This document shows, in pieces, positions 6,136-60,770 of a DNA stretch of 64,000 nucleotides (the first letter of the stretch is position 1; each line of letters opens with the position of its first letter). The stretch covers positions 32,463 through 96,462 of the forward strand of contig JANJXX010000005.1 of NCBI GenBank assembly GCA_024720975.1. The letters run 5' to 3'. The stretch is from Thermoproteota archaeon (lineage in GTDB: Archaea > Asgardarchaeota > Njordarchaeia > Njordarchaeales > Panguiarchaeaceae). The notes beneath the pieces are model-generated. The model saw nothing but the letters and a program-made list of their open reading frames with translations, was not told the DNA's origin and did no database searches. The position numbers and the translations under genes are program-made.

Positions 6136-6458
6136 GGACTGTTTTCTTTGTGAACTTTTTAAGCTATTTTAGCTACTACAGATACATAGAAACAAAAGAG
6201 AAACCAGTGAGCATAAAGATTTTTATACCTTAATTCTATATGAACTGATATTAGGCTCTCGCCTCAATGACGGCGTGGTGGTCATCAGAGGCGGGAGGAT
6301 ACACCTGTCTCTCGAGGCGGGCTTAGTGGTGCCCGTCGATGTAGCTCCCGATGACCCTGCGACAAATGAGCAGGTGCTGAGGGAGAAGCCCGTGTCGAGT
6401 ATATCTATGATATTTAAAATACCTAAACAAACCCAAATAAGCGACACGGACAACCACT
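6136..6458 (+). mobile_element. Non-autonomous tnpB-derived element / candidate omegaRNA locus, copy 1
   Basis: Left end GGACTG...TTTTTAAGCTATTTTAGCTAC and core 6257-6458 near-identical to 8998-9199; ends CAACCACT. Confidence 0.8.
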
Positions 6459-6550
6459 TAATGATGATTTTATATTTGTCTTAAGCTACTGCAATATCAT
6501 AGTTGATTTCCTAATGTATTATTGTTGGAATAGAGTATCGACTGAGTCCC

Positions 6551-7249
6551 GTGGTGAAATTAATGAGCGAACAGAAAGGGGAAGAATCCAAAATGTCAGA
6601 AGAATCGCAAGTCGAGGCGGAAGCTGAGAAGATCCTCAAAGAACTTGAAGCTGGCGAGATTAAGCTTTTTGATAGATGGAGTTGGAAAAACATAGTTGTA
6701 AGGGATCCGGGTCTTGTAACGTATATATCTTTAAAACCTATGTATGTTCCTCATAGCTTTGGTAGGCACGAAAAAACGCGTTTTGCGAAGGCGAAAGTTA
6801 ATATAGTTGAGAGATTGATAAATAGATTAATGACACCGGGCAGAGAAAAGGGTCAACCTAAGACCGGCAGGTTTACTGGTAAAAAACTTCATGCCATGAA
6901 AATTGTAGAGGCAGCATTTGAAATAATAGAAAAATTGACAAAGGAGAATCCTATACAGGTATTCGTGAGAGCAGTGGAAAATGTTGCTCCGAGAGAGGAC
7001 TATACATCTTTCAGAGTTGCAGGAATTATCAAGAAATTTGCAGTTGATATAAGTCCGCAGAGAAGGGTAGATTTAGCTCTTAAATTCATAGTATTAGGTG
7101 CTAGGCAACGTGCATGGAGATCACCAATTAGTATAGCCGAAGCCCTTGCAGAGGAGATAATTGAAGCAGCAAAGGGTCCAGATAATGTAAACTCAATAGC
7201 CGTAAGCAAAAAGATAGAATTAGAAAGGATAGCAGAAGCCGCCAGATGA
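6551..7249 (+). CDS. rps7: 30S ribosomal protein uS7 (archaeal)
   Basis: IKLFDRW, PHSFGRH..RF.K..IVERL, ENPIQV..RAVEN..PRED, VDISPQRRVDLAL, ELERIA. Confidence 0.97.
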   Translation: MVKLMSEQKGEESKMSEESQVEAEAEKILKELEAGEIKLFDRWSWKNIVVRDPGLVTYISLKPMYVPHSFGRHEKTRFAKAKVNIVERLINRLMTPGREKGQPKTGRFTGKKLHAMKIVEAAFEIIEKLTKENPIQVFVRAVENVAPREDYTSFRVAGIIKKFAVDISPQRRVDLALKFIVLGARQRAWRSPISIAEALAEEIIEAAKGPDNVNSIAVSKKIELERIAEAAR

Positions 7250-7251
7250 TA

Positions 7252-8004
7252 CTATTCCACAGTTTTCAAAAATTCTTCTATTGCTTCTATCGTTTGCTTA
7301 AGCATAGCTGAGAATAGTCTTTCCCCCTTTTCCCTTGATGCTCTACTAGGATAGCCCAGCGCACCAGTATCGGTAAATTCTATTGTTCTCCAGGGATATA
7401 TAGCTCTGCTCTTGCTTCGAAAATCGAGATGTTTACCCAAATGACGGAGCTTTGGATCGATAACCTTGTTAAGACGTACTAGATTAGGTTCTTCGAATAG
7501 CATTATGGATGTTTCAAATTCACAAGCATGTCCCCATACATCGCTCTCAAGAATTTCTTTTACTGTGTCGTTAATTAGTTCCCAAGGATTAATAAGGAGA
7601 GCATTGATCTTATATTCAAATTTCAATTTCCTAACAGCTTCTGAAAGTGCATTAGTATTACCCCCATGTCCATTTATAATTATTATGGCTCGAACGCCAT
7701 GCTTTGCTAAACTATTTGCAATTTCACAAACGAGTCTGATAAGAGTCTCAGAGGAAATTGTTATTGTTCCTGGAAAATCCATGTGATGCTCAGAGACACC
7801 ATAATACACCGGAGGAAGAACAAGTATAGAACCACCAAAATTCTTGGCTACTTCCAGGGAGAATTTGTATGCACTTATTGTATCAGTTATTAAGGGCAAA
7901 TGATATGCGTGTTGTTCCGTGCTTCCGATGGGTAAGATAGCGGCTCTTAATCTGGGAATAGCATTCTTGATTTCGTCCCAACTACAGAATCCCCATTCAT
8001 GCAT
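7252..8004 (-). CDS. Creatininase / creatinine amidohydrolase family protein
   Basis: PIGSTEQHAYHLP..TD, GVSEHH..FPGT, NGHGGN, HACEFETS. Confidence 0.9.
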   Translation of the reverse strand: MHEWGFCSWDEIKNAIPRLRAAILPIGSTEQHAYHLPLITDTISAYKFSLEVAKNFGGSILVLPPVYYGVSEHHMDFPGTITISSETLIRLVCEIANSLAKHGVRAIIIINGHGGNTNALSEAVRKLKFEYKINALLINPWELINDTVKEILESDVWGHACEFETSIMLFEEPNLVRLNKVIDPKLRHLGKHLDFRSKSRAIYPWRTIEFTDTGALGYPSRASREKGERLFSAMLKQTIEAIEEFLKTVE

Positions 8005-8165
8005 ATAAAATCCCTAGCACTAATTGCAGAATAGTTAGTCTCAAAATAAGATCCAGTAGAGTTTCTTTCAACTGAGAACAGAATTCAGCACTTAATTGCT
8101 CGTATTTTAAAAAGGTTATTTGGACTTAACAACCTAGCAAATATACCATTGAACGGTGAAAAACA

Positions 8166-8483
8166 ATGGCCGGAACAGAAGCTCCCACAATATATGTTGG
8201 AAAGAAGCCCATCGTTAGGTATCTAATGGCCGCGATTTCAATCCTATTGAATGAAAAGCCCGAAAAGCTCCGCATTAGTGCACGCGGGCGCATGATAAGC
8301 AAGGCTGTCGATGTAGCAGAAATGCTCAAAACACGCTATTTGCCTGGGATAGTTGATATAGATGCGATAAAAACTGGTACAGAAGAACTTCAAGATCCCA
8401 ACCAACCCGGTAGAGTTAACAGAGTCTCAACAATAGAAATCACCCTAAGAAGAACCGGCGAAATAGGAATTTCTAGAAGATAA
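8166..8483 (+). CDS. albA: DNA/RNA-binding protein Alba
   Basis: IYVGKKP..RY, ARGRMISKAVDVAE, VSTIEI. Confidence 0.95.
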   Translation: MAGTEAPTIYVGKKPIVRYLMAAISILLNEKPEKLRISARGRMISKAVDVAEMLKTRYLPGIVDIDAIKTGTEELQDPNQPGRVNRVSTIEITLRRTGEIGISRR

Positions 8484-8873
8484 AAACTAGCTTCTGTGCA
8501 GTCAGCCACTCTTTTTTCATTCCTCATTTATCAGACTATTATATTAATTTCTGCTGCCTTCATCTATCGAACTAGGATGACGACCCAATCCTAGTAATCT
8601 AACAATAGTAATACGTCTAGAACCCTTAACTTTAGATTAACCACTCTCTAATGTGGGTATACTCCACTTCTCCGGCTATTGGTCGTTATTCCGGATGATA
8701 TCCTACAGTTCATATCCTAATAGGAACCCAGCCAGCGCAAAGAAACTTTACCAGGCCGTGCCATAAGCTTTTATAATCATAGCCTTCCAGAGAGCGTAGT
8801 ACCCTTGAAAAATCTCCAGCCTTTGGGTTAAAGCAAGGTATATATGCCTATAACTTAAGATAAAAAGTAACAA

Positions 8874-9199
8874 GACTGTGTCTTCCGTAAAAGTTTTTAA
8901 GCTGTTTTAGCTACTATAGGTACTTGGAATCAGATTCAAGTGCAAGAAATGCGGATTCGAGTTTAACTCACACTACGTAGCTTGCCTAAACCTCTTCTCT
9001 CGCCTCAATGACGGCGTGGTAGCCATCAGAGGCGGGAGGATATATGCATACCTCGAGGCGGGCTTAGTGGTGCCCGTCGATGTAGCTCCCGATGACCCTG
9101 CGATAGATGAGCAGGTGGCGAGGGAGAAGCCCGTGTCGATAATACCCAAGATAATCAAAACACCTGAACAAACCCAAATAAGCGACACGGGCAACCACT
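8874..9199 (+). mobile_element. Non-autonomous tnpB-derived element / candidate omegaRNA locus, copy 2
   Basis: Same left end and core as copy 1; from 8932 it translates RFKCKKCGFEFNSHYVACLNL, the TnpB C-terminal Zn-finger half plus RuvC-III region, with no in-frame start upstream. Confidence 0.85.
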
Positions 9200-9640
9200 C
9201 TATCTCTTCTCTTTCTTCTTGCGGCCAGATACAAGCTCATATAGGGATATTCCATTAACCTTAATTACACGGTATTTTACACCGGGAATATCGCCAAACG
9301 AGCGTCCACGAACTCCTCCTATGGGTTGAATTAGAACCTCATCATGCTCATCAATCATTAAAAGTCCACCGTCATAAGGTACAAAGGCAGTTACAATTTT
9401 CCCATTTTTCTTTAATTTTACCTTCACACACTTTCTAAGAGCGCCTGTTGGTTTTCGTGCCTCGACTCCAACTTTTTTGAGGACAATCCCTAACGCCTGC
9501 GGAGCTCCCTCAAGTGGATCAAACTTCTTCTTGAATCTTAGGACTCTCCTCTTATAATCGAGGTCAGCCCATCGTGCTTTACTCCTCTTTTTCCTCAGTA
9601 TCCTTACTGCAAACTCTCCCCTTGGTGATTTCGTTACCAT
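9200..9640 (-). CDS. rps12: 30S ribosomal protein uS12 (start 9640, or 9712 with a 24-aa extension)
   Basis: [45 protein letters not shown]. Confidence 0.95.
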
Positions 9641-9900
9641 TTCTCCTTCCTCATTCTTATACATGCTTGCTAGGTAGTACACTATCATTTCAGGCTTTTT
9701 AAGGTAAGTCATTGCTTCACCTGGTTTGAATATGACCTATCAGCTATAGAGCTCAAGTAGATGGCTTAGTTTAAAGAACTTTAAAGTCGTGGTTACCTAA
9801 GATACCTTTCCTGCATTGAAGTAAGTCAGAAGAAGATACCCTACTCTAGCTCACTCAATAATCAAGTTTCTCGGCAACCGCTAAGTCTACAAGTCTAACT

Positions 9901-9960
9901 TAAAATTTCAAAATTCTTAGCAAAATTTCTTAAAAATTTCAAAAATTTCTTTTAAAAAAG
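9901..9960. promoter_or_regulatory. Phased AAAATTTC array upstream of the caspase-like gene
   Basis: AAAATT(T)C at 9902, 9910, 9922, 9933, 9942, roughly 10-bp period. Confidence 0.5.
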
Positions 9961-10018
9961 CTTTTTCAACTATACTGTATCAGAATATTATTCCTGATAA
10001 CTTCCCCAAGGCGATTCC

Positions 10019-11653
10019 ATGAAAGCGAAGGCAATAGCAATCCTAAGTTTCCTTCTAGTAGCCGCCCTTACTGCAATAAGTGTAAGCACAGTCTACGCAA
10101 AAAGCTATAATAAAACGCTTCCCGATTTCTCTGATTTCCTAGAGTCTAGAGACGTGGCTGCTATAATTTACGAATTTGTAGGATCCCTCAGTGCTGGCAA
10201 GGAAACTCCCCAATACAGCTTCTCCGTCGACTCTACAGTTACTAAAATAGAAGTAACCCTCAATATGCCAAGTGGTACTGACTTTGACTTGTCCGTCTGG
10301 GATCCCCAAGGCAGGCGTACTGGAGGCTGGACTTCGACGGATAAGTCTGTAAAAACTCAGATTCCAAATTCGAAATATTCAGGAGACTCAGCGAATCCTG
10401 AGTGGGTCACTGTAAGTCCTCCTGCAAGTACAGGTACTTGGAAGACTAGTTGTTATGCGTACTCAGGTTCTGGCAACTTCAAGATCACAGTAAAACTGTA
10501 CGTCACGTCAACAAGCCAGTATAAGTACATATTCTCGGGCTCAGTTAGCAGTGGCAAGGATAGCACGCAACACTCATTTAGTGTTCCATCTACAGCGACC
10601 AAAGTTGAAGTAACCCTTAATATGCCAAGTGGTACTGACTTTGACCTATCAGTTTGGGATGCTCAAAACAGGCGTACTGGAGGCTGGACTTCGACGGATA
10701 AGTCTGTGAAAAATCAAATTCCAAACGCGCAGTACTCAGGATACTCAGCGAATCCCGAGAAGATTACCGTAAGCCCTATAGACTCCACGTCAGTTGGTAC
10801 TTGGAAGACCAGTTGCTATGCATACTCAGGTTCTGGAACATACACAATAACAGCCGTGGTCACTCTGTCTACTAGCAACGGTGGTGGAAGTAGTGGAGGC
10901 AGTAATGGAGGTAGCAGTGGAAGTGGCGATGGTGTAGTTAGAAAGTGGGCTGTGATAGTTGGTATATCTGACTATAAGGCAATCTCAGACTTGTCATACT
11001 GTGATGAGGATGCAACGGATTGGTATAACTTCTTAACAGGAAAACTCGGCTGGCCCTCCTCGAACATCAAAGTTTATGGAGATGGCAGTAGTAGCAGTTA
11101 TTATCCAAAGTATGATGGTAAGGCGACGGAGTATAACGTCAAGCAGGCATTGAACTGGCTCGTAACAACGGCTGATGCCGATGATATAATCGCATTCATA
11201 TCATCCGGACACGGAAGTGGAGACGGTAAAGGAAACTCATACCTCTGCATGTGGGACAGTGGAGCTGGCGAGAACGGTCAAGATGGAAATCTCTGGGATT
11301 ACGAGCTAGCAGCAATACTCAAGAATGCAATTGCCGCTAAAATATTCGTATTCCTGGACCATTGCTACTCCGGTGGATTTGGAAACGACTTAATGAGCAT
11401 GCCCAATAGTGCTAGAGTATACCTGACGACAACATGTACTGAAAAAGGATATGGATATGATGATCCAAATCACAAAAACGGTGCATGGACATATTACTTC
11501 CTAGAGTACTCATGGATAGGAAAATATGGAGGATCCCCAGACGTAGCTCTAGAAGATGTATACGCATACGCTAAAAGTGCATACCCATACAGTGGAGGCG
11601 ACGCACCACAGCAATTCGATGGAAACCCCAACAGTCCATTCTACCTCAAATAG
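10019..11653 (+). CDS. Secreted caspase-family (C14-like) peptidase with two tandem PPC-like beta domains
   Basis: Signal peptide; two repeats containing GTDFDLSVWD; Gly/Ser linker; KWAVIVGISDY, SSGHG and DHCYSG (His/Cys dyad). Confidence 0.8.
   Translation: MKAKAIAILSFLLVAALTAISVSTVYAKSYNKTLPDFSDFLESRDVAAIIYEFVGSLSAGKETPQYSFSVDSTVTKIEVTLNMPSGTDFDLSVWDPQGRRTGGWTSTDKSVKTQIPNSKYSGDSANPEWVTVSPPASTGTWKTSCYAYSGSGNFKITVKLYVTSTSQYKYIFSGSVSSGKDSTQHSFSVPSTATKVEVTLNMPSGTDFDLSVWDAQNRRTGGWTSTDKSVKNQIPNAQYSGYSANPEKITVSPIDSTSVGTWKTSCYAYSGSGTYTITAVVTLSTSNGGGSSGGSNGGSSGSGDGVVRKWAVIVGISDYKAISDLSYCDEDATDWYNFLTGKLGWPSSNIKVYGDGSSSSYYPKYDGKATEYNVKQALNWLVTTADADDIIAFISSGHGSGDGKGNSYLCMWDSGAGENGQDGNLWDYELAAILKNAIAAKIFVFLDHCYSGGFGNDLMSMPNSARVYLTTTCTEKGYGYDDPNHKNGAWTYYFLEYSWIGKYGGSPDVALEDVYAYAKSAYPYSGGDAPQQFDGNPNSPFYLK
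10165..10862 (+). repeat. Intragenic tandem duplication (~355-bp unit)
   Basis: CAGGCGTACTGGAGGCTGGACTTCGACGGATAAGTCTGT and AATATGCCAAGTGGTACTGACTTTGAC each occur identically in both units. Confidence 0.85.
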
Positions 11654-11933
11654 TATTTGATCCTTTCCTACATTCCTTTTTCTAGTCCTTTCTCCCCTCT
11701 GATTAAGTTTGTATCAGGAGTGCACTTACAAGGCTGCCTTCTCGGGTTTAGAAGTTTCTCAATCACTCATTACTGTTAATTGACTTAGCGCAGACTTATA
11801 TCATGAGAATCGGAAGATTTGCAAAAATATTTCAAGACTTAATTGCATTTGGAGAAAGGCTATAATGAAGTACCTTGGGTCTTCAATATAAGTGGATCAG
11901 TCCTTTACAAGAGACTTGTCGTCCGGGTTTAAT

Positions 11934-12335
11934 TTATCGCCTATGCTGTGTGGAGAATTTGTATGGTAGTAATCTAGAGAGTTCTAGTATTACAGGTTCT
12001 CCTTCCTCTGAGCAAATAATCACCTCAAAATTGTCGTCAACGAACTCACTCATGACCTGTCTACAGGCACCGCATGGGGATGGGTTGATGTCAGGTGAAT
12101 ATATGAGAATTCGGTAGAATTTCTTTGCCCCCTCTGAGATGGCTTTAAAAAATGCTACCCTTTCAGCACATACGGTCAGTCCATATGATGCATTTTCTAT
12201 ATTGACTCCAACAAAGTAGCCTTTGTCTGTTTCAAGCACAGCGGAAACTCTTATTCTAGAGTAGGGGGCGTATGAGTTCTGAATGTATTGTTTTGCAATT
12301 TCTAAAAATCTCTCAATAAAGAGTTCTCTAGCCAT
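11934..12335 (-). CDS. cdd: Cytidine deaminase
   Basis: YAPYS, GVNIENASYGLTVCAER, PCGACRQ. Confidence 0.93.
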   Translation of the reverse strand: MARELFIERFLEIAKQYIQNSYAPYSRIRVSAVLETDKGYFVGVNIENASYGLTVCAERVAFFKAISEGAKKFYRILIYSPDINPSPCGACRQVMSEFVDDNFEVIICSEEGEPVILELSRLLPYKFSTQHRR

Positions 12336-12685
12336 CGGATAACACCTTAGGTCTACTTTGATCATGAGAATGAATTTTTGTAAGGTCCTAGGAGGCGTAT
12401 AAATCACTATTTTTGATTATTAGTCGTCACTTAATTTGAAATTGCGGGTAGCTTAACTTAGCTTCTCTCTAAAAGGTAAACGACTTTAAGCTAGGGCAAG
12501 CGAATGAGTATTAAAAACGTACTAATAATGACTAGCCGTTAAGTAAGTCAGATATCGTTAGAAGTCTTTAAAAAGTGAGAATGAGTAAATCTACTATATC
12601 GTGCTAATTGAATATGATATCCGATTATCTTCCTCAACTCTAGCTTATAGGTATAGTCTACTTAATCTTCCACAGGAGGAGAGCT

Positions 12686-13081
12686 TTGAGTAGTGATATT
12701 CACGATAAGCTGCACGAAATTGCCAACTCATACGATATAATATCACTCTACAGAATGGAAAAAGACGGGGAAGTCTTGCTCTATGTATTGACTTACGATG
12801 AGCTAAACTATGAGAAAAAGAAAGAGATCGAAAAAAGTTTAATCAGCTTATTTGAACCTACTAAATGCACTGTACTTTTTGTCTCAGATCTTCCTCCTCA
12901 GCATCTTAAACAAATGGTCGAGGGGTCAGAAATAATTTTCGTTCGTGACAAAAACTTGAGTGACTCAATACTAGCTGGAATACTTACTCTGAGTCTCGAC
13001 TTTCAATACCTTGCAAACGAGGGAATGAGCCTAATACTGAGGAGAAAAATAGCTGAAGCTCTAACCTCACGCGGTGAATAG
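12686..13081 (+). CDS. Degenerate minimal nucleotidyltransferase (MNT antitoxin-like)
   Basis: C-terminal half matches the MNT pattern (VLFVSDLPP..L...EG..IFVRD...LDF) but GS and DxD motifs are absent; directly upstream of a HEPN-like gene. Confidence 0.6.
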   Translation: MSSDIHDKLHEIANSYDIISLYRMEKDGEVLLYVLTYDELNYEKKKEIEKSLISLFEPTKCTVLFVSDLPPQHLKQMVEGSEIIFVRDKNLSDSILAGILTLSLDFQYLANEGMSLILRRKIAEALTSRGE

Positions 13082-13508: not shown

Positions 13509-13514
13509 AAGCGG

Positions 13515-16050: not shown

Positions 16051-16156
16051 CCACCTTCTTAGTTACTTAGAATAATTCTCGTCATGATTAAGAAATCAGT
16101 GGTAAGAGTTCCAAAAAAGTGGGAGAGTATTATTTTAGATGCCAAGTGGTGTGGCT

Positions 16157-19463: not shown

Positions 19464-21146
19464 TTAGCCAACGGATTTGAAGCGCCATTTACTATAAGCC
19501 CGACGCGCGCTTATTATTGCATGTGCATTAAGGCTCATCCAATACATCCCAGATTCTTCGAAGAGCTTTGCTGCTTTCTTAAGCAGTTTAATCGCTAGTT
19601 TTTCCCTCTCGTCAATGATTTTGTTGGAGATTTCGTTGAGAAATGATGCGTAAACGGGAGCGCTTCTGGGGAGTAAAAGTTTTTCAGCAGTCTTTACGGT
19701 TTCTAGAAGTAGGTATTCCTGGTGATTTTGAACAGATCCTAAAGCTACTGCGAATAGTATCTCACCAAGTTCATTTGCTCGAAGTTTTGCATGCTCTAGA
19801 TTGTTCAATATGTACCGAATGCCGTCAGTAAATTTTTTCTTCGAAAGATATTTGACAGCAATAATTAGGTAAAGTGGATCACTTAAACCGATCAGTCTTT
19901 CTATAGCTTTAGAGATGTCGTTCTCGCTGTCTGAGACTATGATTGTAATGAGTGATTCTAATCCAATCTTGTGTCTGGCTTCATTAATCAACTCTGAAGT
20001 GCTACTGAAAATTTCAGTGAGCTCACGAAACTTCTCATTGCTAGTTGCTACTTGAAAGAGCTCATTCCAAATCTCTAGGTGCTGAAGGCCGCTTATTTTG
20101 TTCTCTTTATTGAACGTTCTGATAGCATTTACCAGTAAAGTCTTAAGCCCAAGTCGCAAGGCAGCCGCGGCATATGCTTTAAAAACTCTTAGCGTACATG
20201 GTTGATCTTCAACCTCATAGCAAATGTTTATGGCCAAGTCTAGGTATGCTTGGCTACTTGATGCATCTTTGCTAAGCAAGTTTATTGCGTATTTTAGTGC
20301 AAGCTCTATTAATCCATTTCTTGCGCCTAGGTTATATAACTTGCTGATGATCAAATTCATGATTCCTATGGATTCGATATCACACTTCTCGAGTGCAACG
20401 GCTAATATTTTAGCAAGCATGTCAGCTTGATCCTTGGTTTCGACTTTACCCAGCGCCTTCGCAATCAATTCTGGAAAAAATCCAGGAATGCATTCAACTT
20501 CGTTTATATACTCCCAGAGAGTAATTAAGAAGTTACTGAGATCATTATTGACTAAATCAAGAAATTTCTTGTTAGTTTCCTCATTCGGTAGGTACGAAAG
20601 AGCAATTCCTAGTAAACTAAAATACAGTCTAGGATCAATAACTCTTATCTTATTGATGAAGTCGAAGCAAAGTGCATTGTTTCCTCTTTTAAGTAGCACT
20701 CGGATTAGATTTCTCGATAATAGTCTATCCTCAAAATCTGAGAATCCCCGCGATAGCAGTAGGTCAAAAACTTCGGTAGCATTCGGATTGACGAGAAATA
20801 GCTCTCTAAAATATATAACTTTGGCTTGATCAAAAGCGCTAGCATCGAATAGAGATAATAGTTCCCCGAGTTTCTCTAGATACTTCCCACTAGGAACAAT
20901 TCTCTTGATAAGGTACTCAAAAATTGTAAGTGCCGCTTGTTGCATCGAAGCCTTAAGAAAAGATACTATCGCTAAACGACCATATTGTAGCATAGACTCA
21001 AGGGTGTTAGAAAGATAGAGTAACTCCCTGTAGAATTTAGCAACAGCAAACCAAATAATTCTAGATTCATATCCGATCTCAGGCAATATTGGCTCGTTTT
21101 CCAATTGTCTTAGTATGCTCCTAGCTAATTTATAATCCTTAAGCAT
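19464..21146 (-). CDS. Alpha-helical repeat (TPR/HEAT-like) protein, function unknown
   Basis: 560-aa Leu/Ala-rich amphipathic helical pattern, no catalytic motif seen. Confidence 0.55.
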   Translation of the reverse strand: MLKDYKLARSILRQLENEPILPEIGYESRIIWFAVAKFYRELLYLSNTLESMLQYGRLAIVSFLKASMQQAALTIFEYLIKRIVPSGKYLEKLGELLSLFDASAFDQAKVIYFRELFLVNPNATEVFDLLLSRGFSDFEDRLLSRNLIRVLLKRGNNALCFDFINKIRVIDPRLYFSLLGIALSYLPNEETNKKFLDLVNNDLSNFLITLWEYINEVECIPGFFPELIAKALGKVETKDQADMLAKILAVALEKCDIESIGIMNLIISKLYNLGARNGLIELALKYAINLLSKDASSSQAYLDLAINICYEVEDQPCTLRVFKAYAAAALRLGLKTLLVNAIRTFNKENKISGLQHLEIWNELFQVATSNEKFRELTEIFSSTSELINEARHKIGLESLITIIVSDSENDISKAIERLIGLSDPLYLIIAVKYLSKKKFTDGIRYILNNLEHAKLRANELGEILFAVALGSVQNHQEYLLLETVKTAEKLLLPRSAPVYASFLNEISNKIIDEREKLAIKLLKKAAKLFEESGMYWMSLNAHAIISARRAYSKWRFKSVG

Positions 21147-21170
21147 TTAGTAAAACCAGCTAACACCATC

Positions 21171-21439
21171 AGTGGTTGCCCGTGTTTTTTTGTTCAGGTT
21201 TGCCTAGGTGTTTTGGATAACATGAATACTATTAACACGGGCTTCTTCCCCAGTACCTGCTTACCTATCGCGGGTCATAGAGGTACATCGACGGGCACCA
21301 ACGAGCCCGCCTCGGGGGATAGACATATCCTTCTGCTCCCCCTGGTGGCTACTCTACCGTCATTGAGGCGGGACACTTTTTGATTCCAAGTACCTATGGT
21401 AGTTAAAATAGCTTAAAAACTTTACAGAGAAAACAGTCC
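21171..21439 (-). mobile_element. Non-autonomous tnpB-derived element / candidate omegaRNA locus, copy 3
   Basis: Reverse complement reads GGACTG...TTTTTAAGCTATTTTAACTACCATAGGTACTTGGAATCA, CGCCTCAATGACGG, GAGGCGGGC..TGGTGCCCGTCGATGTA, GAAGCCCGTGT, ACACGGGCAACCACT. Confidence 0.8.
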
Positions 21440-42144: not shown

Positions 42145-42148
42145 AGCG

Positions 42149-51809: not shown

Positions 51810-54800
51810 TTGCACAAAATGTGTAACGCGGATACTCTAAAGGCTCTGCCAGAAATACTATTCAGAAATGCGTGTCCCAACTGCGGAGGGAATATAGACG
51901 CGAGGAGATTATTCCTCGGCATTCCTTGTGAGCTCTGTCTTCCTTTGAGTACGGAGGAAATAAAGCAAGCTAAGGAAAACATGGACTTTTACACATTCCT
52001 TGAGTTTATAGCTTCTAACACTAGGCTGCGCGAAGGGAGCAAGTTCAAAAGATACGTAGACTTAGAGCTTGAAGTCAGGAATTTAGACAAATTATCTGAA
52101 GCAATTTGTGGAAATAAACTCCACCCAATTCAAAGAACTTGGGTCAGGCGATTACTGAAGGGCTTGAGTTTCTCAATAACGGCAGCAACGGGCCTCGGTA
52201 AGACATACTTTGGAATCGTAGCAGCAATATACTATGCTATGAAAGGCAAGAAAACCCTATTTGTTGTTCCAACAGCAGCATTAGTAATGCAGGTTTTAGA
52301 CAAATTCCATCAAGCTCTAGCCAGTATAGGTAACAGAAGTATCACCGTGATCGGTTATCATGCCAGATTATCAGCAAGTGAAAAAGAAAAATTCGTGAAT
52401 AGCGTAAAAGAAGGAGCTTTTGACATAATTGTAATAACATCAAAGTTTCTAATTAGTTATTTCAAATTACTCGAGGGGCATAAATTTGACTTAATATTTG
52501 TCGATGATGTGGATGCACTTCTAAAATCTTCGAAGAATATAGACAATGTTCTCTATCTAGCTGGCTTTAGAAAGGAGCATATCGATGAGGCACTAAACTT
52601 AGTTATGAGAAAACAAAACTTTGCAAGGCTTAGAACAAAATCCAGAAGGAAGCTTTTAGAAGCTACAAGGAAGTTCAAAGAACTCATTGCTGAGTATAAA
52701 AGCAAAAATGGGGTAGGACAAATAATAGTCTCGTCAGCAACTGGAACCACCCGCGGACTGAGAGTAAAAATCCTCCGCGAGCTCTTAGATTTCACAATAG
52801 GATCTACTCGAGGTGGCTTCAGAAATATAGTCGACTCCTTCTATGTAATCAAACCTGGAGAGAAGAATGTGATCGCAAATATCATCCAAAAACTTGGGAC
52901 TGGTGGGGTTATATTTCTAAGCAGAGTTAACAGAAAAATCATTAGCAAGGTTGTAAACGACCTAGAGAAATTAGGTTTCAAAGTTGGGGATGCGACCAAG
53001 CAAGTAAACATAGATAAGATGATCAAAGCCTTCTCCAATGGTGAACTAGATATACTTATTGGAGCAGCTGCATACTATGGAAAGTTAGTCCGTGGTCTAG
53101 ACATTCCGCAAGCAATAAGATATGCTGTATTCATTGGTGTTCCTCACTTTAGATTTCCGCTGGAAATAACTGAAAAAACGCATCCATACAGGGGATATGT
53201 TATACTTAGTGAACTTGTGGGGCTTATAGAAGACAGAAAGAAGCAAACAGAACTTTTAAGGCTTGTGAGCAGCTTCAGAAGAAAATTCATGAGGTTAAGA
53301 CACGCTACTAGACAGCAAATTCTAGATTCTATTTTGGAGAAAAAACCCCTTCCCTCTAAGCAACTAGAGGCAATAAAAGAATTGTGTATAAATATTCTAA
53401 AGGTTGCTAAAGAATTATTGTCTGATAAAGATATCATAAGCAAGTTAAATAAAAGTCCCTTCGTAGAGGTAAGAGAAGATAATGGAAGGTTATATCTATA
53501 CATTCCAGACGCAAAAACATACGTGCAATGCTCAGGAAGAACCTCTCGTTTATATGCGGGAGGAATAACAAAGGGGCTTGCCGTTATTGTCACGCGTCGA
53601 AGAAAACTGCTCGAAAGTCTTCAATATCGAACTAGGCCCTACGCCATTACTGAGTGGTATGATTTTGAAAAGCTAGACATAGATAGTATCCTAGAGGATA
53701 TCAATAAAGACAGAGAAAAACTCAAAGAAATTATCAGCGGAAGTAGAGTCCCAGAACCTAAAGAATTAATGCACTCAGCATTGGTAGTTGTAGAGTCTCC
53801 AACCAAGGCGAAAACCATAGCAAGTTTCTTCGGAAAGCCTGCCAAAAGGATAATGAAGAATCTCATTGTTTATGAGGCCTCTACCGGTAAGCATGTGCTA
53901 AACATAATGGCAACAAGGGGGCACATATTTGACCTAGTATTAGAGGATATAGAGGTATCAGATATTGCTGCCATAAAAAGCTTCTTTGATATAAGCAGTA
54001 ACCTGTATGGCGTAAGAATCGAAAGCGATGGTGATAAAATTAACTATGTTCCAGAATATCATGTTCTAGGGATTTGCAGGAATTGTGGTAAGAGGTTTAC
54101 GGGCTTATACGAAAGATGTCCGAGGTGCGGAAGCGACGATATAGTATCGCAGCAGGATGTGCTAGAAGTGCTTTATGAAATCGCTAGCGAATCTGATGAG
54201 GTCATAATAGCAACGGATCCTGACTCTGAGGGAGAAAAAATAGGTTTCGATGTTGCTCTTATGGTGGCGCCATATTCAGAAAAAATAAGTAGAATAGAAT
54301 ACCACGCCATCACGCCATATGAATTTAAAAAAGCCCTTGAGAATCCACGTAGTATAAATCTAGATATGGTTAAAGCACAACTTGTTAGGAGAATTACTGA
54401 CAGGTGGGTTGGTTTCGTTTTCAGTCACCTATTGTGGAAACTCAAGCGCGTTAGAAAGAAATTCTTCTCTTACTCAGCAGGTAGAGTCCAGACACCAGTT
54501 CTTGGATGGATTATAGAGAGATTTGATGAATACAAAAAGAGTAAAGTTAAAGGATACACAATAAGACTCTCTAACGGATATTCGATAAACATCGAGGGGG
54601 ACATTATACCAAAGGAGGTTTTATCATCACTCATTGGAAAAAGTATAGAAGTAAACATTTCTAGCACGCGCGAGGAGACAATAAACCCTCCACCTCCATA
54701 CACCACTGCAGAATTACTAAAGGACCTATCAAACCAACTCAAAATGGGAAGTAGCGAAATCATGAGAATTCTACAAGAGCTTTTCGAATCCGGATTAATA

Positions 54801-55727
54801 ACGTATCACAGGACAGATTCGACTAGAGTAAGTCCAGAGGGAATAAACGTTGCAAAAGAGTACATAAAAAGTGAGCTTGGTGATCTTAATCTGTTCCAAC
54901 CCAGAACATGGGGAGATGAGAAAGAGGGAGCTCATGAATGCATCCGACCAACGATGCCAATAACGGCTAGCGCTCTCATAAGAATGCTGCAGACAGAAGA
55001 AATAGTACTACCAGTGAAGTTTACGAAAAAACACTTTGCTGTCTATCAACAGATATTTAAGAGATTTATGGCCAGTCAAATGAAGCCAGCTAGGGTTAGA
55101 ATTAGTACGATTGATCTTATGATTGATGGTGCAATTAAGCATAGACTTGAGGGTATAACGGACATTCTTGAGCCTGGATTTATGACAATATACCCATACA
55201 ACACTCTCCCAAGATTTGAAGGCGTGGAAATTGAACAGGTTAAGAGTGTGAAGATCATCAAAAAGCCCCTCTACTCAGAAAGTGATGTCATTGATAGAAT
55301 GCGGAGTGAGGGAATCGGTCGACCGTCAACGTATGCAATAGTTCTTGACACGCTTTTCAAGAGAGGCTACATAAAGGCAAGTCTGTACAGAAGAAAGATT
55401 TTTCCGCTGAAAAAAGGCATTTCCATATACCGGTTACTAGTAAATAGCATAAACTCATACGTAAAAGACCTCAAGAAAAAAGATGTAAAACTTGCAGAAG
55501 GTTTAAAGAGGTTTATTAGCGTTGATGGTACAAGGGATCTAGAGAAAAAAATGGACCTCGTCGAGCAGGGTAAAGAGGACTACCAGAAAATTCTAAGGGA
55601 GGTTCATGATTCGTTAGCAGGGCTCCTGAATGATTTGAGTAAGTACTATGCCAGAGAGCTTTTGCCCGCAATAGAGAAGGAGTTAGCACAAGCAAATAAA
55701 GGCTCTGATAGAACTCGTAAGGCTTGA
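51810..55727 (+). CDS. rgy: Reverse gyrase
   Basis: N-terminal CPNCGG..C..C, ATGLGKT, DDVD, RGLD.P, SGRTSR, VESPTKA, DPDSEGE, SAGRVQTP, ITYHRTDS, GIGRPSTY. Confidence 0.97.
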   Translation: MHKMCNADTLKALPEILFRNACPNCGGNIDARRLFLGIPCELCLPLSTEEIKQAKENMDFYTFLEFIASNTRLREGSKFKRYVDLELEVRNLDKLSEAICGNKLHPIQRTWVRRLLKGLSFSITAATGLGKTYFGIVAAIYYAMKGKKTLFVVPTAALVMQVLDKFHQALASIGNRSITVIGYHARLSASEKEKFVNSVKEGAFDIIVITSKFLISYFKLLEGHKFDLIFVDDVDALLKSSKNIDNVLYLAGFRKEHIDEALNLVMRKQNFARLRTKSRRKLLEATRKFKELIAEYKSKNGVGQIIVSSATGTTRGLRVKILRELLDFTIGSTRGGFRNIVDSFYVIKPGEKNVIANIIQKLGTGGVIFLSRVNRKIISKVVNDLEKLGFKVGDATKQVNIDKMIKAFSNGELDILIGAAAYYGKLVRGLDIPQAIRYAVFIGVPHFRFPLEITEKTHPYRGYVILSELVGLIEDRKKQTELLRLVSSFRRKFMRLRHATRQQILDSILEKKPLPSKQLEAIKELCINILKVAKELLSDKDIISKLNKSPFVEVREDNGRLYLYIPDAKTYVQCSGRTSRLYAGGITKGLAVIVTRRRKLLESLQYRTRPYAITEWYDFEKLDIDSILEDINKDREKLKEIISGSRVPEPKELMHSALVVVESPTKAKTIASFFGKPAKRIMKNLIVYEASTGKHVLNIMATRGHIFDLVLEDIEVSDIAAIKSFFDISSNLYGVRIESDGDKINYVPEYHVLGICRNCGKRFTGLYERCPRCGSDDIVSQQDVLEVLYEIASESDEVIIATDPDSEGEKIGFDVALMVAPYSEKISRIEYHAITPYEFKKALENPRSINLDMVKAQLVRRITDRWVGFVFSHLLWKLKRVRKKFFSYSAGRVQTPVLGWIIERFDEYKKSKVKGYTIRLSNGYSINIEGDIIPKEVLSSLIGKSIEVNISSTREETINPPPPYTTAELLKDLSNQLKMGSSEIMRILQELFESGLITYHRTDSTRVSPEGINVAKEYIKSELGDLNLFQPRTWGDEKEGAHECIRPTMPITASALIRMLQTEEIVLPVKFTKKHFAVYQQIFKRFMASQMKPARVRISTIDLMIDGAIKHRLEGITDILEPGFMTIYPYNTLPRFEGVEIEQVKSVKIIKKPLYSESDVIDRMRSEGIGRPSTYAIVLDTLFKRGYIKASLYRRKIFPLKKGISIYRLLVNSINSYVKDLKKKDVKLAEGLKRFISVDGTRDLEKKMDLVEQGKEDYQKILREVHDSLAGLLNDLSKYYARELLPAIEKELAQANKGSDRTRKA

Positions 55728-55772
55728 ATTCCATACGATTTAGGACGTACAGTCTGAGATATGAATTTCAAA

Positions 55773-56573
55773 TTATTGTGTCCTCCTAATAGTGATTTTA
55801 TCTCCTAACTTAACATTCAGCAGATCTTTGGCAGATGCTTGATTTGCTGCTATTTCTAAGTAGCCATGTGAAGTTTCTTTAAGGAGAACGAGCCTACCTA
55901 AGGGAACGTCACCGAATGTGCGTCCAACAGTAGCCTCTAATTTCTTATCTTGTGTTTCTATGATAACTTTTGTCCAAATTAGTTCACTGAATAAATCGCA
56001 GGGTACATTCAGGAAAATGTTTCCAAAGCTATCTATTGCTAATACTTCAGCCTCGTAGAAGCCATTTTCGATTGTAGGCTTTGGAAGTTCAATTCTAACC
56101 AATTCTTGGGGATCTACTACCGGGCCCAGATTCGTTATGGGAACTCCTATTGATAAGTATGCTGAGACGGGAGCAAAAATATCCCTTCCATGAAATGTAG
56201 TGCTTATCTCTGGAAGCATGAATTCTCTATTCTTGAGTTCGACGCACGTTATGATTCCGTCTTCCAGAGCAGCCATGGAAAGACAGCCATTATCAGGACC
56301 TACAAAAAAGAAATTTCTCGTCTTTATCGCTATTCCGCGCCTGGTAGTTCCAACGCCAGGGTCAACAACACAACAAAAAATTGTCTCTTTAGGAAAGTAC
56401 TTATAAGAGACCTTGAGTATGAATGCCGCATATTTGACATTAAAGTTAGGTATGCCATGCGACAAATCAACGATTTTAGCATTTGGGTTAATCCTATAGA
56501 TGACTCCCTTCATAATGCCGACAAATGGATCCTGAACGCCAAAATCTGTTATCAATGCAATGATTCTATTCAT
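55773..56573 (-). CDS. SAM hydroxide adenosyltransferase (DUF62, chlorinase/fluorinase family)
   Basis: TDFG..D.FVG.MKG, VVDPGVGT.R, GPDNG, TFHGRDIFAP, D.FGN. Confidence 0.92.
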   Translation of the reverse strand: MNRIIALITDFGVQDPFVGIMKGVIYRINPNAKIVDLSHGIPNFNVKYAAFILKVSYKYFPKETIFCCVVDPGVGTTRRGIAIKTRNFFFVGPDNGCLSMAALEDGIITCVELKNREFMLPEISTTFHGRDIFAPVSAYLSIGVPITNLGPVVDPQELVRIELPKPTIENGFYEAEVLAIDSFGNIFLNVPCDLFSELIWTKVIIETQDKKLEATVGRTFGDVPLGRLVLLKETSHGYLEIAANQASAKDLLNVKLGDKITIRRTQ

Positions 56574-57300
56574 GACATTCTCCCCAGCAGAAGTACAGGT
56601 TTTCTTGGGTGGGTTTCAGCTCGATAATATTGAACTCCGTTATGTAGCCGTCATAAACAAGCATCTTGTTTATTAGAGGTCTTCCAATGCCTGCTAAGAG
56701 TTTTATCGTTTCCGTAGCTTGTATTAGTCCGATTATTCCTGGAGTCGTGCCCAAGACAGGAACAAATTCCTTGTCTCTGGGTTCGCTTATCAAGCGACGA
56801 AGGCACAGCGTCTCATGGGGAACTATGTCAGTAACTTGACCATAGAGACCTTCTATACCTCCATGTATGAGGATCTTCTTACTCTTACAGATTGCTTCAT
56901 CGAGTATAAATCTCGTTTTCCAGTTGTCTAGGCAATCAACGATGATGTCCGCACTCTTAACAAGATCGAAAGCATTATCTTCAGCTATATGTTCATCTAA
57001 AGTATCTATATTAACCTCTGGATTGAGCGATTGAAGTCTCTCTTTAGCTACAGCAACTTTCTTTTTTCCTAAATCTTTACTTGTGTATAGTATCTGTCTG
57101 TTCAAATCTGACAGCTTAATTATATCAGGATCGACAAGAATAAGTTTCCCAATGCCGCTTGCTGCCAAATATATGCTTACAATAGAGCCAAGCCCTCCAA
57201 CGCCAGCTATAAGAACTCGAGCAGATTCGAGTCTTTTTTGACCCTCTTCTCCTATTATTGGGAGTTGTCTTGAGTATCTCTCTTTATTAAAAATAATCAT
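56566..57300 (-). CDS. ThiF/MoeB/UbaA E1-like adenylyltransferase
   Basis: RYSRQ, GVGGLG, SDLNRQILY, DCLDN..TR. Confidence 0.88.
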   Translation of the reverse strand: MIIFNKERYSRQLPIIGEEGQKRLESARVLIAGVGGLGSIVSIYLAASGIGKLILVDPDIIKLSDLNRQILYTSKDLGKKKVAVAKERLQSLNPEVNIDTLDEHIAEDNAFDLVKSADIIVDCLDNWKTRFILDEAICKSKKILIHGGIEGLYGQVTDIVPHETLCLRRLISEPRDKEFVPVLGTTPGIIGLIQATETIKLLAGIGRPLINKMLVYDGYITEFNIIELKPTQENLYFCWGECHE

Positions 57301-57315
57301 GACTTGCGCCCCGGA

Positions 57316-58482
57316 CTAAACTTTAGATGCTCCAGCAAATAAATGCAGGAGTTCACTTTGAATAAAGGCAACCCAAGTTTCATCGTTGGTCACAATGCCT
57401 ATAATACTATGGGGATCTACTATAGTCTCAGGAATAGCGGCTAAAACAGCCTCCTTCAAGTCCATCACAACTCCAAAAACCCTGACATTTTTCATAGTCC
57501 TTAATTGTACGGTTGGACCCCTTGATTTTAGTTCCTCTATTATTCGTTGATGGGCTGGAAAAGCTTCTGCAACTATCTGAATACGCACCTTAGGAGAAAT
57601 CTTTTGTATAAGCTCAACTGGAACGTAGTCGTATGTGGGAGCCGCGAGAACTATAAAGTTCTCTGCTCTCTTTATTAAATCACCTACATGTCCCTTAATA
57701 ATATCCAATCCCTTGGCAATCCTGACATCGTACTCAGGCCGGAACTCTTTCTCGAAGCCCTTAATGATCAGGGCATCGATACTTGCCTTAGTAAGGTTAA
57801 ACAGATCAAGGATTTCCTCGATTTTTTGTTTGACTCTCTTTTCCAGCAACTCCCTAGTCTTGGTTGCTAGTTCTTGTGCTAGTAATTCCATATGTGTCGC
57901 TAAATCTCTGCTATATGTACCAATGGAACTTCCAAGATTAGAAACTGTTGAGCTCTTAAGAGTGTGCAGTTCCTTAGATACGATTGTCTTGAAGTCTTCC
58001 AATACTTTGTTGAAGACGCTTCCAAGAGTCTTAAGAACGCTCTCATATAGAACATTCATGAGTGATGTTTCTATTGCGCTAGCTATACTTATAACCAGGT
58101 TCTCAAGACTTTTTGACATATTATTAATCATTTCTTTAATGCTCTCAGATATCGCATTCGTACTCTCTCGAACATCAGCAGTCAAGCCTCTTTCGAACTC
58201 CGTCACAGCAGTTGTTAGTTCATCTATCTGAAGCTTTATGAGAGAGTATGGTGGTAGAGCCTCGTACATTGGAGGATTTCCGGGGAATTCCCTCGCAAGT
58301 TTGGCGACAATAAGCTCCTTCAAAGCCTTCTCAAGAGTTAACGGATCTAGTCCAGTCAAATTTGAAATATCTCCCAGGGACCGTGGCCTCAGACCTATTA
58401 GTGCCGTATAAACTATCATAGCATCCTCCGAAATTTTCGCATACTTTAGGAGATTTTTTATTGATTCAACGTAGCCTGACAA
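57316..58482 (-). CDS. TrmB-like regulator (wHTH, long coiled coil, C-terminal effector domain)
   Basis: VY.ALI...G..S...GL......LKEL...L....PG.P..Y.ALPP; heptad-rich middle; LIKRAENFIVLAAP. Confidence 0.7.
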   Translation of the reverse strand: MSGYVESIKNLLKYAKISEDAMIVYTALIGLRPRSLGDISNLTGLDPLTLEKALKELIVAKLAREFPGNPPMYEALPPYSLIKLQIDELTTAVTEFERGLTADVRESTNAISESIKEMINNMSKSLENLVISIASAIETSLMNVLYESVLKTLGSVFNKVLEDFKTIVSKELHTLKSSTVSNLGSSIGTYSRDLATHMELLAQELATKTRELLEKRVKQKIEEILDLFNLTKASIDALIIKGFEKEFRPEYDVRIAKGLDIIKGHVGDLIKRAENFIVLAAPTYDYVPVELIQKISPKVRIQIVAEAFPAHQRIIEELKSRGPTVQLRTMKNVRVFGVVMDLKEAVLAAIPETIVDPHSIIGIVTNDETWVAFIQSELLHLFAGASKV

Positions 58483-58573
58483 TTTAAACCCTCCGTATAA
58501 AAGTGATAATTTAATTTCAAGATAAAAATCACTAGATTATGAGAGAGTTTACAGCGAGATGGTGTGACTTCCA

Positions 58574-59662
58574 ATGTCATCAAGGATAGGAATCGTAATT
58601 TATGGTCCAGAAAAATCTAGCAATTTTCTCCTGATGCAAAAAATTCATGAACTATACAGAGGAGTGGCTATGCATGATATAAGACACCTTGGTGGGGGTG
58701 GCATTGAAGGCATTAACTACTGCGAATTTCAAATTGGAGACATTATATATGAGTTTTATGTACCCCCAAGCGAATCTGCGTTAAAGGTTCTAAGGGAAAA
58801 ACTAGCTAAGAGAGCCAGTGCTATCATATTCGTAGCGCCAGCATCCAAGGCGTATCTAGACAAGACATATTCTCTAATCAGTGAATTGAAGCATACCCTG
58901 TTCGCAAAGCTCGGCCCAGAGGCCGAGCACTTTCCCTTAATTTACGCTATTAACATCTCAAAGCGCACGACTATTGTTGATATGGAACCAAAGGATCTCA
59001 TAGAAGCGCTTAGGCTGCCGCATGAATCAATAATACGTGTTTTTGACATAGATGATGAGACCGCAGTGCGTGAACTATTTGGTACAGCTACGCACTTGTC
59101 ATTCTTGTGGAATTTCAGTAAAAAACAGTATTTTATTGAACTTGATGAAGAGTTTAAAGCAACTGAGAGTAAATATTTCAAGATAATGCAACCTACTGAA
59201 GTAATCTCACCAGAATACGCCAAATTATTTGTAGAAGAGCGTGCTAGGTCGAGAGAAACACCTCATCCTAGAATAATAAGTGTTTCAGATTCTATTAAAA
59301 ATAAGCTAGCAAGAAATTACATTAATGAGATAACTCTACTAAAATTCGATAGCACAGTGGGATACATTCCTTCAGGATTTATCTTTGGTGCTGGCAAAAT
59401 CGTGAAATATGTAGAAGATCCCACTAGAATAGCAGAACTTTCTATAATAGCAAAACATTCAATAGGGACACTTCTTGTCGATGGTTTTACAACTGTAGGT
59501 TTTATCAAGCTAGCGGATCAAGGATTGCTAGTTCTAGAATCGACAATTCACCACATCAAAAAATTGACTAACATCGTCAAAAAGCTTCAAAGTGAAGTCT
59601 CACATCTTTCCTCAACTAACGTTAAGGAATTAGTGGGGGCGTTAGATAAACTCCTCTCATAA
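58574..59662 (+). CDS. Degenerate small-GTPase-fold protein with C-terminal longin/uDENN-like segment
   Basis: IGIVIYGPEKSSN (eroded P-loop), ASAIIFVA, PLIYAINISK (eroded NKxD); ITLLKFDSTVG. Confidence 0.45.
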   Translation: MSSRIGIVIYGPEKSSNFLLMQKIHELYRGVAMHDIRHLGGGGIEGINYCEFQIGDIIYEFYVPPSESALKVLREKLAKRASAIIFVAPASKAYLDKTYSLISELKHTLFAKLGPEAEHFPLIYAINISKRTTIVDMEPKDLIEALRLPHESIIRVFDIDDETAVRELFGTATHLSFLWNFSKKQYFIELDEEFKATESKYFKIMQPTEVISPEYAKLFVEERARSRETPHPRIISVSDSIKNKLARNYINEITLLKFDSTVGYIPSGFIFGAGKIVKYVEDPTRIAELSIIAKHSIGTLLVDGFTTVGFIKLADQGLLVLESTIHHIKKLTNIVKKLQSEVSHLSSTNVKELVGALDKLLS

Positions 59663-59761
59663 TAATATTTAAAAGGCATAGACAACGCTTGCATCATGTT
59701 CTTAGTGTGAACAGAAAAATCCGCGCGTTCAGTTCTCTTGCAAAAGCCCTAGGGGTCACCT

Positions 59762-60322
59762 TTGAGTGAGGTAGGCGAGGTTTATTTATCAACCCAAAAA
59801 GCTGCAAAGCTACTAGGTGTTCACCGCATGACTCTATATCGCTGGGCGAGAAGCGGAAAGATCCAGTGCATTAGAACACCAACAGGGCGAATTCACTTTC
59901 CACTTTCAGAGCTTGTTAAATTTAAACCTAAGATCAAAAACTCGAATGATGTTGCTATCTATGCGCGTATTATCGATGAGGAAGCAGTAAGGCGGAGATT
60001 ATTAGAGGAGCAAGTAGCGTTTCTCAAGAACTATGCTAGGAAAATGGGCTATAATATAGTGGAGGTGGTGAAGGATGTTGGCCTGTCTAATGAGAAAAGT
60101 CTTGTAAAGCTTTTGGAACTGGCAAAAGCTGGTAAGATACGGAAAATTCTCGTAGTTAGTAAAGATAGGCTACATACGATATTCCCAGAATTTCTTGAAG
60201 AGGTTTTCAGGATATTAGGCGCTGAAATTGAGGTGGTAGACTGGGATTCCGAGGAGTTTAAGCGAACAAGGGAACTAGAGATTGTTGAATTAGTGCAAAC
60301 TTTACTATTGAAAATGAAATAG
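59762..60322 (+). CDS. IS607 TnpA-like MerR-HTH serine recombinase lacking the catalytic Ser
   Basis: AAKLLGVHRMTLYRW..SGKI..IRTPTGR HTH; AIYARII in place of YARVS; KDRL retained. Confidence 0.8.
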   Translation: MSEVGEVYLSTQKAAKLLGVHRMTLYRWARSGKIQCIRTPTGRIHFPLSELVKFKPKIKNSNDVAIYARIIDEEAVRRRLLEEQVAFLKNYARKMGYNIVEVVKDVGLSNEKSLVKLLELAKAGKIRKILVVSKDRLHTIFPEFLEEVFRILGAEIEVVDWDSEEFKRTRELEIVELVQTLLLKMK

Positions 60323-60404
60323 AAGGTCACATGAGCATTCCCTTACGAATTTTAGGTTATTAACTCTATCAATTCTAGGCTTTGAGTCGGGTAGTATCCT
60401 AACA

Positions 60405-60770
60405 GGCCATTGTCAGTGTTAGTTGAATTAGCTATTTCCAGTTACTTTAACCATAATAAATTTCCCGAACGGGCTCTCTTATTCTGACACTGGCGCTAAT
60501 AGCAAATCATTAGAGATTGCACCAATGGCGCAACTCACACAGTCCTGGGAAGTGCAATATTGTTTTGTTACTGAGTAGAACATGCTCGTAACTTATCAGA
60601 TATGATGGCGTGAGGCTTTACCGTCCAACTTCTCAACCACCGGGGATGTATGTGTTAAATTCTTTTGTGTCTTAATGCATCATTGAGCCCCTCAAGCATG
60701 GAGCAAATACTTTAGCTCAAGTATCTTTAACAGTTAAAATAACTTAAAAACTTCTACTAAGGAAACAGTC
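60405..60770 (-). mobile_element. Decayed copy 4 of the tnpB-derived element
   Basis: Minus strand GACTGTTTCC..AAGTTTTTAAGTTATTTTAACT..AGATACTTG matches the left end; weaker matches GAGAGCCCGT and ACACTGACAA to the core. Confidence 0.5.

Follow-up and report, generated by a model that had tools for sequence, protein, structure and literature searches.

Element copies in the analysed window

The stretch analysed here (the window) comprises 64,000 nucleotides of contig C25 of an archaeal metagenome-assembled genome (MAG; 1.36 Mb in 29 contigs, 81% complete), and it carries short, intergenic, gene-less copies of a transposon-derived element. An earlier note on this DNA had described four such copies as promoter-bearing RNA cassettes. 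Reading, alignment and a covariance model (R1) bore this out for copies 1-3, whereas BLAST recovered only the left end of copy 4, and R1 found no scaffold there. Reading and aligning the stretches showed that copies 1-3 followed a common plan, consisting of a left end of ~55-60 nt with TTTTTAAG, a copy-specific middle and a GC-rich core of ~200 nt. The succession of a ~50-bp left end with a TATA-like box, a linker and the core had been recognized correctly before, as had the differences between the flanks of the three copies. R1 scored the cores at 178 (copy 2), 166 (copy 1) and 109 bits (copy 3), with E values of 1e-55 to 1e-33, and the resemblance among the copies is therefore far beyond chance. 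An Rfam search of the window gave no family match. The identity and anatomy of these copies as IS607 mini-elements are secure; their coordinates are collected in Table 1.

The parent IS607 element

A single full-length tnpB was found in the same genome by BLAST and by tblastn against the genome (C26:52133-53452), and it carries the 3' sequence of the copies: the core corresponds to the last ~170 nt of this gene and ~32 nt downstream, which confirmed the proposed derivation of the core from tnpB. The linker of copy 2 (8932-8994) encodes RFKCKKCGFEFNSHYVACLNL, as had been read before, and this peptide matches the C-terminus of the full C26 TnpB; the remnant was 92% identical to TnpB residues 362-438 (tblastn). 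The C26 tnpB starts with TTG where its relatives carry ATG, and a purine-rich stretch precedes the start. Upstream of the gene lies the same left end, followed by a tnpA reduced to its helix-turn-helix (HTH, ~50 codons), so the tnpB-bearing element is itself non-autonomous. The HTH-only remnant (C26:51902-52110, locus L004:120-352) ends at a stop just before tnpB, and may encode a small regulator that binds DNA. Another MAG carries an identical element, with a 100% identical TnpB, on a 3.7-kb contig (L018).

The genome under study retains tnpA fragments only, the other being ~115 codons of a serine recombinase tnpA (N-terminal fragment, PF00239 match) fused to a scaffold at C11:200426-201024. 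A complete element of ~2.0 kb was found in a related locus (L019), in which tnpA (2406-3053, 215 aa, YARVSS) overlaps tnpB (3010-4320, 436 aa), and a serine-recombinase tnpA stood upstream of tnpB in 24 of 37 related loci. On the strength of this overlapping gene architecture, the parent is assigned to the IS607 family of insertion sequences, with a tnpA for a serine recombinase of the type with an N-terminal MerR-like HTH, followed by tnpB, over ~2.0 kb. The earlier note had named IS200/IS605 or IS607 as the source, and the serine recombinase of L019 narrows this to the latter. The ends of the element are not inverted repeats; the RGAC left flank and the ..AACCAC right end both terminate in AC, in the copies of this genome as well as in relatives. 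A classical miniature inverted-repeat transposable element was rejected, since the ends differ (TGTNT... versus ...AACCAC) and no duplication extends beyond the AC core; the copies resemble such elements in size and dependence only. Homologues with 85-90% identity occur in MAGs labelled Desulfurococcaceae, Zestosphaera, Ignisphaera, Acidilobaceae, Thermofilaceae and Bathyarchaeia, which indicates that the element moves between lineages.

The C26 TnpB matched PF07282 (55 bits in Pfam; Cas12f1-like TNB zinc ribbon), and its AlphaFold model (pLDDT 75) matched Cas12f/TnpB structures (Foldseek E 6e-19). The RuvC-I D of VIDINE, the RuvC-II E of VRENL and the CxxC...CxxC motif were invariant across the protein alignment (A2). 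The last ~36 residues (404-439) were predicted by AlphaFold to be disordered, and the RNA that overlaps this tail is the better explanation for its conservation.

The core is an omegaRNA scaffold

The 3' ends of 30 related loci were aligned (A3), the structure was derived with RNAalifold and the covariance model R1 was built. The scaffold spans ~200 nt, that is the tnpB 3' end and ~32 nt, with the terminus ...GGGCAACCAC. Five helices were found, in which 96.4% of the pair cells held standard pairs, as opposed to 40-53% when the partners were slid. Compensatory changes were observed in 19 of 38 pairs (86 cells), and none of 500 shuffles equalled these values. The core is thus a covariation-supported omegaRNA scaffold of TnpB, as had been supposed. 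The P2 loop GUGGU can pair with the terminal ACCAC in a 5-bp pseudoknot; both partners are invariant, and the pseudoknot is compatible with the data, although covariation gives no proof of it. The helices were essentially all kept in copies 1 and 2 (for copy 1, 9/10, 3/3, 7/7, 5/5 and 7/8 pairs), whereas copy 3 had lost parts of P1 and P3, so that intact scaffolds can be claimed for copies 1 and 2 and not for the partly eroded copy 3 (109 bits).

The similarity ends exactly after AACCAC, as it should where a scaffold gives way to a guide. Only 5 of the 9 copies of this genome, and 15 of 31 relatives, continue with T, and therefore this base is the first of the flank; the core does not run to CAACCACT, where the earlier note had placed its end.

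Boundaries, target motif and guides

RGAC (GGAC or AGAC) precedes the left end in nearly all copies of the genome and in 17 of 21 relatives, and the bases further upstream vary. In CboIS607, the last two bases of the transposon-adjacent motif (TAM), TGGG, are the core dinucleotide, with which the omegaRNA scaffold (..TCGG) closes as well (10.1101/2023.11.20.567912). By analogy with CboIS607, RGAC would serve both as the TnpA target and as the TnpB TAM, with AC as the core, and the CCAC at the right end would be a self-sequence that escapes targeting. A donor joint for the C26 element, sought in paralogous ABC-transporter genes, was dropped; the flanks seem to belong to different genes (an ATPase end and a permease end), which suggests a rearrangement.

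The predicted guides were compared with the genome over 16 nt. None of the nine had a second genomic site with RGAC, and that of copy 1 had no second match in the genome. Most guides lacked a second match within two mismatches; the few closer ones, including one with a single mismatch, were not preceded by RGAC, and allowing up to three mismatches added scattered low-complexity or paralogue matches only. The orientation of the cassettes to neighbouring genes was mixed (four co-oriented, three convergent), with no bias towards downstream genes. Copies 1 and 2 flank the genes of ribosomal proteins S7 and S12 (Pfam), the former beginning 94 nt past copy 1 in the same orientation.

Table 1. Element copies in the window and omegaRNA scaffolds of the genome
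Feature	Position	Strand	Remarks
Copy 1, GGAC left-flank motif	6136-6139	+	Predicted TAM and TnpA target; AC, predicted core dinucleotide
Copy 1, left end	6140-6254	+	TATA-like box 6156-6163, diverged tnpA 5' leader, ~45-nt linker
Copy 1, complete omegaRNA scaffold	6255-6457	+	Stand-alone; R1 166 bits; terminus AACCAC
Copy 1, predicted guide	6458-6477	+	Right flank, first ~16-20 nt; position by analogy with TnpB systems
Copy 2, AGAC left-flank motif	8873-8876	+	
Copy 2, left end	8877-8931	+	TATA-like box 8894-8901; 98% identity to left end of the C26 tnpB element
Copy 2, tnpB coding remnant	8932-8995	+	Second zinc-ribbon CxxC and RuvC-III region, His at the Asp position
Copy 2, complete omegaRNA scaffold	8996-9198	+	Stand-alone; R1 178 bits; 33/33 model pairs kept
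Copy 2, predicted guide	9199-9218	+	Antisense to final codons of ribosomal protein S12 gene (9200-9712, -)
Copy 3, GGAC and left end	21376-21439	-	GGAC 21439-21436; TATA-like box 21419-21412; scaffold almost directly adjoining
Copy 3, omegaRNA scaffold, partly eroded	21172-21375	-	Stand-alone; R1 109 bits; P1 7/10 and P3 3/5 pairs kept
Copy 3, predicted guide	21152-21171	-	26 nt upstream of co-oriented 560-aa open reading frame (19464-21146)
Copy 4, left-end remnant only	60718-60771	-	AGAC and ~50 nt; TATA-like box 60750-60743; BLAST with full element
C26 scaffold			tnpB-linked; R1 180 bits
C11 scaffold			Stand-alone; R1 170 bits
C8 scaffold			Stand-alone; R1 151 bits
C28 scaffold			Stand-alone; R1 95 bits
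C24 scaffold			Stand-alone; R1 94 bits
C23 scaffold			Stand-alone; R1 90 bits

Census and spread of the mini-elements

Scanning the genome with R1 revealed nine scaffolds, eight of which stand alone (Table 1). Copies 1 and 2 are young, with intact scaffolds, and copy 3 and others are older and eroding. The earlier note had taken the copies for independent deletions of the parent. This did not hold, as copy 1 shares its left-end variant, linker and junction with copies at two other loci (C8:2261-2588 and C23:98836-99143), and copy 3 shares another architecture and junction with one (C24:36392-36658). The same junction at different loci means that these copies spread after the deletion, and at least two deletion classes were thereby shown to have reached new loci as mini-elements. 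Copy 2, which is 98% and 95% identical to the C26 element, and the C11 copy are unique, recent deletions. Stand-alone scaffolds were also found in other genomes (L090, L091, L092 and L065), and a pattern scan of metagenomes yielded one true mini-element, of another subfamily (L098), and three chance matches.

Several further arrangements were seen at these loci. A weak R1 match at C11:13570-13775 (-; 23 bits, E 2e-4) may be a scaffold that belongs to a different TnpB family, or else a very ancient remnant. At C23:98800-98840 and in L091 (~1500-1540), the right-end terminus ..AACCACT lies directly before the left end or partial scaffold of another copy, an arrangement suggestive of a circle junction or of IS607-type elements inserted in tandem. 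In L090 (G015:C1:~110000-110054), the AACCAC end of a stand-alone scaffold directly adjoins the 3' end of a tRNA gene that runs antisense to it, so that the predicted guide would be complementary to tRNA-gene DNA.

Copy 4 and its neighbourhood

Copy 4 is a left-end stub without a core. R1 found no scaffold on its strand with the filters off, and thus there is no decayed core of the kind that had been reported there. The stub sits between the TIP49 gene (60859-62220) and an adjoining gene (59762-60322, +) for a 186-aa IS607-type TnpA-like protein with HTH_17 and Resolvase N-terminal domains. The catalytic Ser motif of this protein is altered (YARII versus YARVS in active TnpA). Orthologues with 42-54% identity are the neighbours of TIP49 in each of the four same-genus genomes, and others are present across the order; all of them are without the D.xSG and DRL.R motifs, and some retain YARVS. 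The two genes are in tandem in the genome of the window and divergent in at least two relatives (L100, L103). Judged by these sequence features, the protein looks like a domesticated, recombinase-derived DNA-binding protein.

Origin and possible function of the stand-alone scaffolds

We consider it probable, though well short of settled, that the copies are gene-less IS607 derivatives carrying a left-end promoter and a complete omegaRNA gene, the RNA of which is used by TnpB in trans. Internal deletion of the parent spared the left end, with the tnpA promoter, and the last ~200 nt, with the scaffold and right end. Transcription from the left-end promoter would yield an omegaRNA with the copy's own right flank as its 3' guide, which the single C26 TnpB could load in trans. 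Upon excision of a mini-element by TnpA, the empty donor joint (RGAC, then the flank) would be recognized by TnpB, and recombination would restore the copy, as shown for bacterial IS605 and IS607. Copies 1 and 2, which are recent, seem fit for such homing, and the older ones (copy 3 and others) are decaying. Use in trans is plausible for the young copies and would be their most likely function.

The positions of the deletions argue for a role of the scaffold. In four of the six two-ended classes of this genome, as well as in L092 and L098, the right endpoints fall in a zone that begins 70 nt before the scaffold start and extends a few nt into it; if endpoints were uniform over ~1.9 kb, ~4% would be expected in this zone, a rough figure that is subject to how the copies were found. 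The left end was also retained. A BRE/TATA-like box (BRE, transcription factor B recognition element) is conserved ~17-24 nt inside the left-end boundary and is the predicted tnpA promoter. The earlier note had stressed that promoter and scaffold were kept together. The retention of the left end with the tnpA promoter stands. Its value as evidence of function does not, as 40 bp of the left end and 60 bp of the right end are enough for the one IS607 TnpA tested (10.1101/2023.11.20.567912), and the box lies within those 40 bp.

Several observations weigh against the reading we favour, the first being that promoter retention, for the reason just given, is no independent evidence of function. Scaffold retention is not universal, with the P1 helix missing in C28 and L091. 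Within classes, the conservation of scaffold versus left end was 86% versus 78%, 70% versus 60% and 71% versus 82%. Given the helix loss in old copies and a scaffold that is not clearly better conserved, no long-term selection on the stand-alone RNAs is demonstrated. In one element (C23:5218-7347, -; L012, L014), the left end is accompanied by no more than ~87 nt of the right end. The TAM is assigned by analogy; at ~70-76% DNA identity, the four same-genus genomes, in which the genes flanking copy 1 are syntenic, had diverged too far to yield a nucleotide-level empty site. No catalytically intact TnpA of the element's family was found in the 81%-complete assembly, and the mini-element system may therefore be idle at present. 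Finally, the RuvC-III Asp of TnpB (D-x-N-A-A-x-N-I), which aligns to the third catalytic Asp of AsCas12f, is replaced by His in the subfamily and by Gln in relatives of 55-60% identity, while more distant relatives keep the usual DRD or NAD motif. Judged by this replacement, DNA cleavage by the His/Gln clade is uncertain. Several RuvC-III-rearranged clades, including Asp to His, have been described, and their conserved replacements were argued to imply retained activity (Altae-Tran et al. 2023, PMC10691335).

The element at C23:5218-7347 carries its own cargo. An N6/N4 DNA methylase (PF01555) and a BsaWI-like type II endonuclease (PF18643) lie there in one orientation, and this restriction-modification pair occupies the place of tnpA and tnpB behind the left-end promoter.

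Much of this counter-evidence would equally suit inert relics, that is deletion derivatives once mobilized by TnpA for a limited period, in which the scaffold was kept through its overlap with the right end or through deletion hot spots and the RNA has no role. The decay gradient from 178 to 90 bits, the scaffold being no more conserved than the left end within classes, the lack of an intact TnpA in the assembly and the position of the promoter inside the minimal left end regardless of function all agree with such relics. However, they would not account for independent deletion classes, here and elsewhere, that end ~0-70 nt from the 5' edge of the scaffold, when the tested IS607 TnpA requires just ~60 bp of right end and ~87 nt can be enough, as seen in the restriction-modification cargo element. 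In Sulfolobus, moreover, homologous remnants are transcribed. We regard inert relics as a serious but distinctly less likely account.

A further idea takes the altered RuvC-III site at face value: the His/Gln TnpB clade would be rewired or non-cutting, and the mini-elements would be a mobile guide library used in trans, for instance for RNA-guided site marking, recombinase recruitment or gene control, instead of cut-and-copy homing. We hold this to be improbable. We give even less credence to transcripts that act without TnpB, as antisense or 3' untranslated region regulators, such as those proposed for RNA-257 (PMC3674436), or as mobile, outward-reading promoters. Copy 2 does read antisense into the 3' end of the S12 gene, and copies 1 and 3 point towards co-oriented genes 94 and 26 nt away, but there is no orientation bias across the copies, and such effects would be by-products of insertion and not a reason for scaffold retention. 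Least likely of all is a domesticated guide library in which a TldR-like His/Gln TnpB binds without cutting and dispersed cassettes programme host-gene regulation: the replaced RuvC-III Asp throughout the TnpB family and the proximity of cassettes to the S7 and S12 genes speak for it, whereas the family has remained on transposons (relatives carry tnpA and conserved ends, and identity is 85-90% across distant lineages), clades with a conserved D-to-H change are regarded as probably active (PMC10691335), no second RGAC-preceded genomic match was seen for any of the nine guides and the orientation of neighbours is mixed. An assignment to TldR itself was rejected on the ends and tnpA present in relatives and on the lack of a second RGAC-flanked genomic site for any guide.

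Comparison with known systems

The kind of system to which the gene-less IS607 derivatives belong is already known, from palindrome-associated transposable elements (PATEs) with omegaRNAs and from SMN1 and RNA-257 of Sulfolobus, and is not new. OmegaRNAs are frequently encoded in PATEs and depend for their use on a TnpB in trans (Meers et al. 2023, PMC10055086). These IS200/IS605 derivatives are likewise gene-less, keep both ends and the omegaRNA, and depend on a TnpB encoded elsewhere. They differ in being bacterial and in relying on a Y1 (HUH) transposase, single-stranded DNA and hairpin ends, whereas the present copies are archaeal IS607 derivatives of a serine recombinase element, with the tnpA promoter directly upstream of the scaffold.

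The RNA-257 1-4 copies of S. solfataricus derive from the orfB 3' end of ISC1904, which carries a resolvase and orfB; these remnants have promoters and are transcribed (Martens et al. 2013, PMC3674436). By description they resemble the copies studied here, as intergenic, paralogous distal ends of orfB/tnpB from a resolvase-type insertion sequence in a thermophilic archaeon, each with its own promoter. RNA-257 was, however, read as an antisense regulator, with promoters proposed to arise from point changes, and in the present copies the promoter is the element's own left end. We infer the connection of RNA-257 to omegaRNA. SMN1, according to the summary of PMC3718332, is a ~320-bp non-autonomous Sulfolobus element mobilized by ISC1733; as described there, it is similar in its size of ~320 bp, the lack of a protein, the supply of transposase in trans and its crenarchaeal host, and it differs in that the summary reports no omegaRNA content.

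CboIS607 and the IStron share with the present family a tnpA(S) and a tnpB, an omegaRNA that overlaps the tnpB 3' end and the right end, and a pseudoknot by the guide; in CboIS607, too, TAM and scaffold end in one and the same core dinucleotide. The TAM of CboIS607 is TGGG, its core is GG and its activity was demonstrated, whereas the TAM (RGAC), core (AC) and activity of the present family are predicted; here there is no group I intron, and the RuvC-III Asp is replaced. The RuvC-III-rearranged clades (PMC10691335) offer a parallel in their conserved replacement of the third Asp by His in an otherwise functional-looking TnpB lineage. In contrast to them, the TnpB family described here has kept its zinc ribbon, is associated with a serine recombinase and uses Gln at this position as well.

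The present family yields a ~200-nt scaffold with its covariance model, a candidate TAM (RGAC) and a thermophilic TnpB with an unusual RuvC-III His/Gln. It offers a natural example, in thermophilic archaea, of transposon derivatives stripped to a promoter and a guide-RNA gene. Several independent deletions that halt at the edge of the scaffold support the view that the guide RNA, beyond the transposase-binding ends, sustains these mini-elements.

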